Positions 53,582 to 55,162 of a stretch of 64,000 nt of DNA are shown here, piece by piece. The notes beneath the pieces were generated by a model, which saw nothing but the letters and a program-made list of their open reading frames with translations, was not told where the DNA came from and did not search any database. How positions within the stretch are numbered: the first letter of the stretch is position 1; each line of letters opens with the position of its first letter. Source of the stretch: an uncultured Actinomycetes bacterium (lineage in GTDB: Bacteria; Actinomycetota; Thermoleophilia; UBA2241); the NCBI GenBank assembly GCA_963755025.1, contig CAVWIH010000010.1, forward strand, positions 33,370 through 97,369. Direction: 5' to 3'. The position numbers and the translations under genes are program-made.

Positions 53582-55162
53582 TCAGGCTCTTCAACTCTCT
53601 CACGCAGCGCAAGGAGGAGCTTGTCCCGCGCGACGCAGGCAAGGTCGGCATCTACGCCTGCGGCCCCACGGTCTACAACCTCGTGCACATCGGCAACGCG
53701 CGTCCCTACGTGGTGTTCGCCGTGCTGCGCGCCTGGCTGACCGCGCGCGGCTACGACGTCACGCTGGTCGAGAACATCACCGACGTCAACGACAAGATCA
53801 ACGCCAAGGCCGACGCCGAGGGCCGCTCGCCCAGCGCGGTGGCGGCCGAGTTCACCCAGGCCTACCTGGACGACACCGACCGCCTCGGCGTGCCGCGGCC
53901 CGACCTCGAGCCGCGGGCCAGCGAGACCATCCCCGAGATCATCGACCTCGTCTGCCAGCTCATCGCCGGCGGCCACGCCTACGAGTCGCAGGGCAGCGTC
54001 TACTTTCGCGTGCGCAGCTTTCCCGACGTACGGCAAGCTCTCCAACCAGCGCATCGACGAGCTCGAAGAGGCCACCCGCGTCGAGGCCGAGCCGGGCAAA
54101 GAAGACCCGCTCGACTTCGCCGTCTGGAAGGCGGCCAAGCCCGGCGAGCGCGAGCACCTCTGGGAGAGCCCCTGGGGCACGGGCCGGCCGGGCTGGCACA
54201 TCGAGTGCTCGGCCATGGGCCTGCGCTACCTGGGCGCCGGCTTCGACATCCACGGCGGCGGCCGCGACCTGATCTTCCCCCACCACGAGAACGAGATCGC
54301 CCAGGCCGAGGCGGCCGGCATGCCCTTCGCCCGCATCTGGATGCACAACGGCATGATCCGCTCCGGCGGCGAGAAGATGGCCAAGTCGGTCGGCAACATC
54401 TTCCTGCTGCGCGAGGTGCTCGACCGCTACCCGGCGCCGGTCGTGCTCACCTACTTCCTCACGACCCACTACCGCAGCCCGCTCGAGTTCTCGCTCGAGA
54501 AGCTCGACGAGGCCAAGGCCGCCTACGGGCGCCTGGTCGAGGCGGTGCGCACGGCCAGCTTCCGCGCCGACAACCCCGGCCGCGGCGAGCTCTACGACGC
54601 CGACCGACCTGCGCGCCGCGCTCGACCGCACGCGCGCCGCCTTCGCCGAGCACATGGACGACGACCTGAACACCGCCGCCGCGCTGGGCGAGCTCTTCGG
54701 CCTGGGCCGCGAGCTCTTTCGCTACGTGGCCGCCGCCGACGCCGCCGGCCGTTCGGCCGACGCGGCCGCCCTCGAAGACGCCGAGGACCTGCTCGTGCAC
54801 GGCCTCGACGACCTCTGCATCGCCCTGCCCGACGCCAGCGCCGGTGGTCGCCGGCTTCGACGCCGACGAGCGGCGGCGCCGCGACGGCTTCGCGCGACTC
54901 CGACGGCGAGGTCTGCGCGACCGACGTCGTGCCGCTGCCGCCGGCCGCGCGCCTCGCCGACGAAGGCCGCTGGGCCGACATCGCCGAGCTGGTCGACGAG
55001 CGCCTCACCTGCGGCGACGCCACCTACGCCTGCCTGCTGCGCGACCACCTGCGCGCCGAAAAGGACTAGGCCAGCGCCGACGCCCTGCGCGCCCGCCTCG
55101 AGGCGGCCGGCTTCGAGGTGCGCGACACGCCGGGCGGCACGCAGGTGGTGCGCAAGGGCTGA
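53578..55162 (+). CDS. cysS: Cysteine--tRNA ligase (frameshifted; in-frame TAG at 55067-55069)
   Basis: [58 protein letters not shown]-terminal [12 protein letters not shown]...VRDTPGGT. Confidence 0.93.

Follow-up and report, generated by a model that had tools for sequence, protein, structure and literature searches.

The in-frame TAG in the cysteinyl-tRNA synthetase gene (cysS) of this genome is, with a rough probability of 0.75, an artefact of the assembly, arising either from a miscalled TAC or from the blending of TAC and TGG alleles. The assembly is filled with errors, the errors are concentrated at cysS, and every other sequence carries a sense codon at this position; the base behind the TAG would, we infer, be one of these errors. 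The codon lies in a window (the whole 64,000-nucleotide stretch of DNA that was analysed, G000:C10:33370-97369) for which an initial annotation had proposed pyrrolysine (Pyl) in a housekeeping enzyme, with a base-call error from TAC to TAG as the alternative. It is this alternative that is now favoured, by indels private to the assembly, by TAC in the closest sequences and by the density of errors in the region.

An amber codon within a conserved domain

The TAG occupies window positions 55067-55069 on the plus strand and is codon 496 of 526 in cysS (53578..55162, +; GTG start, TGA stop; codons counted with four extra bases ignored). As first described, it is present and in frame, and it is followed by 30 sense codons (55070..55159, +) and by a TGA at 55160-55162, the final base of which is the A of the downstream ATG at 55162-55164. 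The downstream reading frame (55162..56041, +) carries a PF00588 SpoU methyltransferase domain (76.1 bits, on 55694-56041), which fits the rlmB-type gene named in the initial annotation. For the CysRS family we used the definition of a class I enzyme recognised by TIGR00435 or by PF01406, PF09190 and PF23493. TIGR00435 matches the window gene in two frame-shifted pieces (225.6 and 171.5 bits), and HIGN and KMAKS, which we take to be the HIGH-type and KMSKS-type signature motifs of class I, are visible in the translated pieces. In the intact orthologue from one of the closest relatives, G002, Pfam recognises tRNA-synt_1e (PF01406, 373.1 bits) and DALR_2. When the tail of the window gene is translated with X at the TAG, the C-terminal anticodon-binding domain CysS_C (PF23493) scores 25.9 bits against a cut-off of 23; the match covers residues 45-80 of the 84-residue tail, and the TAG, at residue 54, falls inside it. 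Termination at the TAG would cost the enzyme its last 31 residues and most of this domain. The anatomy behind the claim that full-length CysRS needs read-through of UAG is thus borne out, with the qualification that an uninterrupted, conserved frame 3′ of the codon is also what a miscalled sense codon predicts.

Conservation of the tail was assessed in a protein collection in which 6749 proteins, among 8000 candidates, matched at E <= 1e-100. From these the best 120 cluster representatives (clusters at 90%) were taken, and 119 were aligned, one (P0041) being omitted as frameshifted; the homologues at 64-78% identity carry Thermoleophilia source names. The position of the TAG is indeed aromatic, with W in 114 of the 119 clusters, Y in 3 and F in 2, and none of the 119 has a stop, a break or a protein end there. 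The part of the protein beyond it is kept in all 119, and none of the best 120 representatives is truncated at codon 496.

These numbers bear directly on the notion that a genuine nonsense mutation, whether fixed or a variant within the population, accounts for the TAG and leaves a CysRS without its last 31 residues or marks a gene that is being lost. We regard this as very improbable. The codon does lie near the C-terminus, and TIGR00435 finds no second cysS, a possibility raised at the outset, elsewhere in the 3.37-Mb assembly, so that the encoded product would have to serve; however, since the metagenome-assembled genome (MAG) is only 84% complete, a missing second copy is weak evidence. 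Moreover, most of the anticodon-binding domain would go, the tail is universally kept among the aligned homologues, and four frameshifts accompanied by zero private substitutions are unlike the record of a decaying gene.

In the window as a whole, the view that this is the only clean internal stop holds up, in that comparison with the 93%-identical G002 gives no second clean mid-gene stop. The remaining flagged stops fall no more than about 15 codons from the end of a gene, precede a start, belong to an antisense frame or adjoin an indel. As a separate matter, the window has TGA at 36657-36659, at the end of pylC, where G002 has TGC, and TAA at 30990-30992 where G002 has CAA. Each is no more than about 15 codons away from the stop that G002 uses, and may reflect either natural differences in the length of the C-terminus or additional miscalls.

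Codon 496 in other sequences

Alignment of cysS across the relatives, proposed with the initial annotation, places TAC (Tyr) at codon 496 in two of the 11 other genomes of the genus, TGG (Trp) in nine and TAG in none. The two with TAC, G002 and G004, are the closest species, at 93% nucleotide identity. In all 11 genomes cysS is a single open frame, and none has the four insertions that break the window gene.

Closer sequences come from public sequencing runs. Four runs from four studies (X1-X4) supplied Logan contigs that match the window at 95% or better; 22 public runs share window words, with a best share of 0.31, and none was taken as the source run. Just two contigs lie over codon 496, record 14 of X2 (446 letters, 8 differences) and record 29 of X4 (311 letters, 6 differences), and both have C at 55069, which gives TAC. 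The contigs of X1 and X3 do not reach the codon, a gap in coverage and not evidence. Independent sequence with TAC, TGG or TTC at this codon had been taken in advance as speaking against the amber codon. Such sequence exists in part: the two contigs do read TAC, but they represent a sister strain about 98% identical to the window and not the window's own haplotype, and a difference of about 2% leaves room for an allele private to the strain. JGI metagenome contigs, scanned with a 53-letter degenerate pattern, yielded two contigs, both from a G004-like species (92% identical) and both TAC; the same scan, of a collection that may withhold records of the window's own genome, returned no contigs of the window's own species. 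Finally, P0041 sits on a 233-kb contig from another public assembly, again of the sister strain, and matches the window's species. Its cysS is frameshifted and runs out of frame to 532 residues, and the residues of the shifted frame would imply TAC at codon 496. That this gene is frameshifted too suggests that long-read MAGs of the group often break in this G+C-rich gene.

Taken against this background, it is unlikely that the TAG is real in this strain, as an amber codon private to it.

Errors in the assembly and around cysS

The assembly comprises 3.37 Mb in 39 contigs, with about 71% G+C, 84% completeness and 5% contamination. Its consensus accuracy was gauged with a frameshift census in which ORFs from 775 kb of G002 (six contigs) were matched to this genome by tblastn. 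Over 123,679 aligned codons it counted at least 77 frame switches, which affect at least 63 of 350 genes (18%); this is an undercount, since even cysS, for all its four indels, contributes no more than one.

cysS itself is spread over three frames by four single extra bases on the plus strand, near 54028, 54600, 54838 and 54871, so the early remark that the read was noisy was well founded. The five in-frame pieces that result correspond to residues 1-149, 151-340, 343-419, 423-430 and 432-527 of the G002 orthologue. All four bases are private to this assembly, and the contigs are without them wherever they cover the sites: the base at 54028 is missing from the X1 and X3 contigs and from 11/11 relatives, that at 54600 from the X1 contig and from 11/11 relatives, and those at 54838 and 54871 from the X1, X2 and X4 contigs, each being an insertion relative to G002. 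The adjacent rlmB-like gene is also disrupted: against both the contigs and G002, it has one base too many near 55373 and lacks one near 55625. Altogether 6-7 indels, on which contigs and G002 agree, fall in the 2.5 kb around cysS, about 13 times the genome-wide density. The TAG is therefore a feature private to one assembly that lies among the demonstrable errors of that assembly.

Clean in-frame stops also occur in other conserved genes. At C19:51251 of this assembly, a conserved gene of unassigned family contains a TGA in frame. Relative to GAG CCG in the relatives, insertion of a T and loss of a G six bases further on account for it, and the gene also switches frame 183 bases upstream (about C19:51068). 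The census in the reverse direction, with this genome's ORFs compared with G002, gave a TAG at G002:C8:33004 where this genome has AAG (Lys). The gene encodes a conserved 444-residue P-loop-like protein and has two frame switches in G002; a stop and two switches in one gene mean that the G002 assembly is noisy too. A less tractable case is an in-frame TAG at C10:1692, outside the window, at about codon 19 of an AAT-family gene (acyl-CoA:6-APA acyltransferase-like by Pfam). Three relatives have CAG there, the next codon is the rare GTA, and no frameshift was seen in the gene, so that the assembly contains, besides the one in cysS, a further amber codon that is unexplained. Counting cysS with these three, 3 of 4 stop-bearing genes are also frameshifted, compared with 18% of genes overall; a rough binomial by hand gives about 0.02, a figure that mixes two genomes. 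The other stops in the census, in antisense or upstream frames, were set aside by eye, as a matter of judgement, on amino-acid make-up and position, three of them being checked by Pfam.

The type of stop was considered as a discriminator and dropped. With the codon usage of the genus, 2.5% of random substitutions create a stop. TAG makes up 66.5% of the stops so created, and TAC supplies 14% of the TAG stops expected from random single-base changes. Since random errors mostly give TAG, the amber identity of the cysS stop carries little weight.

In its many single-base indels in conserved genes, its clustered errors and its in-frame TAG and TGA codons in conserved genes, the genome resembles uncorrected long-read metagenome assemblies, as does the sister assembly G002. 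It departs from them in that the cysS TAG involves a substitution, while almost every error that can be detected in this assembly is an indel, and the platform can be called only long-read-like.

Shared bases around the codon

Variable sites in cysS were sorted by whether the window shares its base with the contigs, with the G002 and G004 pair, or with the other nine genomes. The window has no substitution of its own, whereas the contigs have seven. At 14 sites the window goes with the contigs, and at another 14 it goes with the other nine genomes against both the contigs and the G002-G004 pair. Between 54917 and 55097, all six differences between window and contigs are sites at which the window has the base of the TGG-bearing species. 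The alleles of the window's strain around the codon include G at 54917, C at 54941, G at 54988 and C at 55083. Within the codon, the window shares its A at 55068 with the TAC group and its G at 55069 with the TGG group, so that TAG stands exactly midway, a single base change from either TGG or TAC.

The complete lack of window-private substitutions suggests that substitution miscalls are rarer here than indels. An upper bound on their rate was derived from the zero private substitutions in about 1,300 comparable cysS sites, and at about 0.2% or less it is too loose to decide the matter.

One interpretation is that the TAG is a surviving intermediate on a path from Trp (TGG) through amber (TAG) to Tyr (TAC) at this near-invariant aromatic position, tolerated through the reading of UAG as pyrrolysine in this Thermoleophilia lineage. 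We hold this to be distinctly improbable. The pattern of bases near the codon would look like this for a true intermediate, for a consensus over mixed strains or for a chance C>G miscall alike.

Under the artefact reading that we prefer, a metagenome assembly of low accuracy and long-read-like character would have yielded the TAG as a consensus error. The organism's own codon 496 would most likely be TAC (Tyr), less likely TGG (Trp), and an ordinary full-length CysRS would be made. The error could have taken one of two forms. The first is a simple C>G error. The second is a hybrid call from merged reads of co-occurring TAC and TGG strains, which is possible because TAG combines the A of one allele with the G of the other; in a poorly resolved region, such a call could plausibly come from taking the consensus site by site over a mixture of TAC and TGG reads.

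Pyrrolysine machinery and the use of UAG

What gives the amber codon its interest is the company that it keeps. A complete pyl set lies in the same window, 12-21 kb upstream: pylB, pylC and pylD (33740..37662, +; TIGR03910, 421.7 bits; TIGR03909, 244.3 bits; TIGR03911, 173 bits), a tRNA-Pyl gene (pylT) with anticodon CUA found by ARAGORN (37727..37799, +), pylSn (37868..38287, +; TIGR03912, 125 bits) and pylSc (42168..42890, -; TIGR02367, 277.8 bits; G000:C10:75537-76259). An MtbC-like corrinoid protein is recognised by profile match at 39960-40610. Judged from these genes, the organism is predicted to be able to make and insert pyrrolysine. Among the relatives, the pyl region was demonstrated in G002 only, and a literature search on pyrrolysine together with Thermoleophilia found nothing relevant.

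UAG is at the same time a working stop codon. It terminates 714 of the 2073 ORFs that passed filtering here, and 171 of 458 in G002; with about a third of ORFs closed by TAG in both genomes, it has not been reassigned. Where about 35% of genes end in TAG, the release factor competes with any read-through. Competition of Pyl insertion with release factors is likewise described in the relevant passages of two reviews (PMC2933860, PMC8211752), which name, as Pyl proteins other than methyltransferases, only Thg1 and some transposases of Methanosarcinales. According to the passage of PMC8211752 that quotes Prat et al. 2012, Acetohalobium arabaticum inserts Pyl on trimethylamine only, and this is the sole bacterium that the passage gives as studied for condition-dependent insertion.

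It is in this setting that a real TAG, read at least in part as pyrrolysine by the organism's own tRNA-Pyl and PylS to give full-length CysRS, has to be weighed, and we consider it improbable. The pyl genes close by and the intact, conserved codons downstream are what it would call for, and the one-step position of TAG between the relatives' TGG and TAC, with no other window-private substitution in cysS, is congenial to it. There is also the precedent of Thg1, the tRNA-His guanylyltransferase, in which Pyl was physically observed (Heinemann et al. 2009, as cited in the passage of PMC2933860 on this protein); by analogy with Thg1 of Methanosarcina acetivorans, the codon might have appeared as a neutral or slightly harmful change. 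Both cases would involve an in-frame amber codon in a tRNA-related enzyme that is not a methyltransferase, confined to one lineage of a pyl-bearing organism. However, the Thg1 codon lies in a finished genome, whereas the cysS codon comes from one noisy assembly of a bacterium in which TAG is a common stop, and is known from sequence alone. Furthermore, were insertion limited to growth on trimethylamine, as in the account of Prat et al. 2012 quoted in PMC8211752, an essential single-copy enzyme would otherwise be truncated. The proposal of the initial annotation found no support: TAG is absent at this codon from the genus genomes (0/11), from the homologue clusters (0/119) and from the sister strain, which has TAC; it is a frequent ordinary stop in the genome; and the codon sits inside an error hot spot.

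Were it true, the consequences would be considerable. Pyrrolysine would extend beyond the methylamine methyltransferases into an essential bacterial enzyme of translation, and CysRS would be the first bacterial housekeeping enzyme to carry it. An expanded code would then alter the amino-acid replacements that are within reach and open a mutational route to which there is otherwise no access. For now, the case serves as a caution. Because random miscalls in noisy, high-GC genomes that encode Pyl will mostly be TAG, apparent Pyl codons in housekeeping genes are to be expected as artefacts, and such codons need proof at the level of reads. The point has practical weight, as about 1 gene in 5 is frameshifted in what is a species-representative genome, and with consensus accuracy this poor, the protein predictions made from it can be expected to be fragmented.

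Other features of the cysS region

Two features of the region deserve mention in their own right. At 54780-55060, about 60-70 inserted residues separate the DALR and C-terminal domains in the CysRS of this genus. This insertion combines a variable linker with conserved cysteines (GEVC...C.D..YAC), is kept in 11/11 relatives and may be a small metal-binding module. Upstream of cysS, gltX slips out of frame towards its end, probably owing to a further indel, and the gltX-cysS spacer (53300-53570) contains a very G+C-rich tract of imperfect repeats of about 250 bases, CCGCCGCC / GGCCGCCCG.
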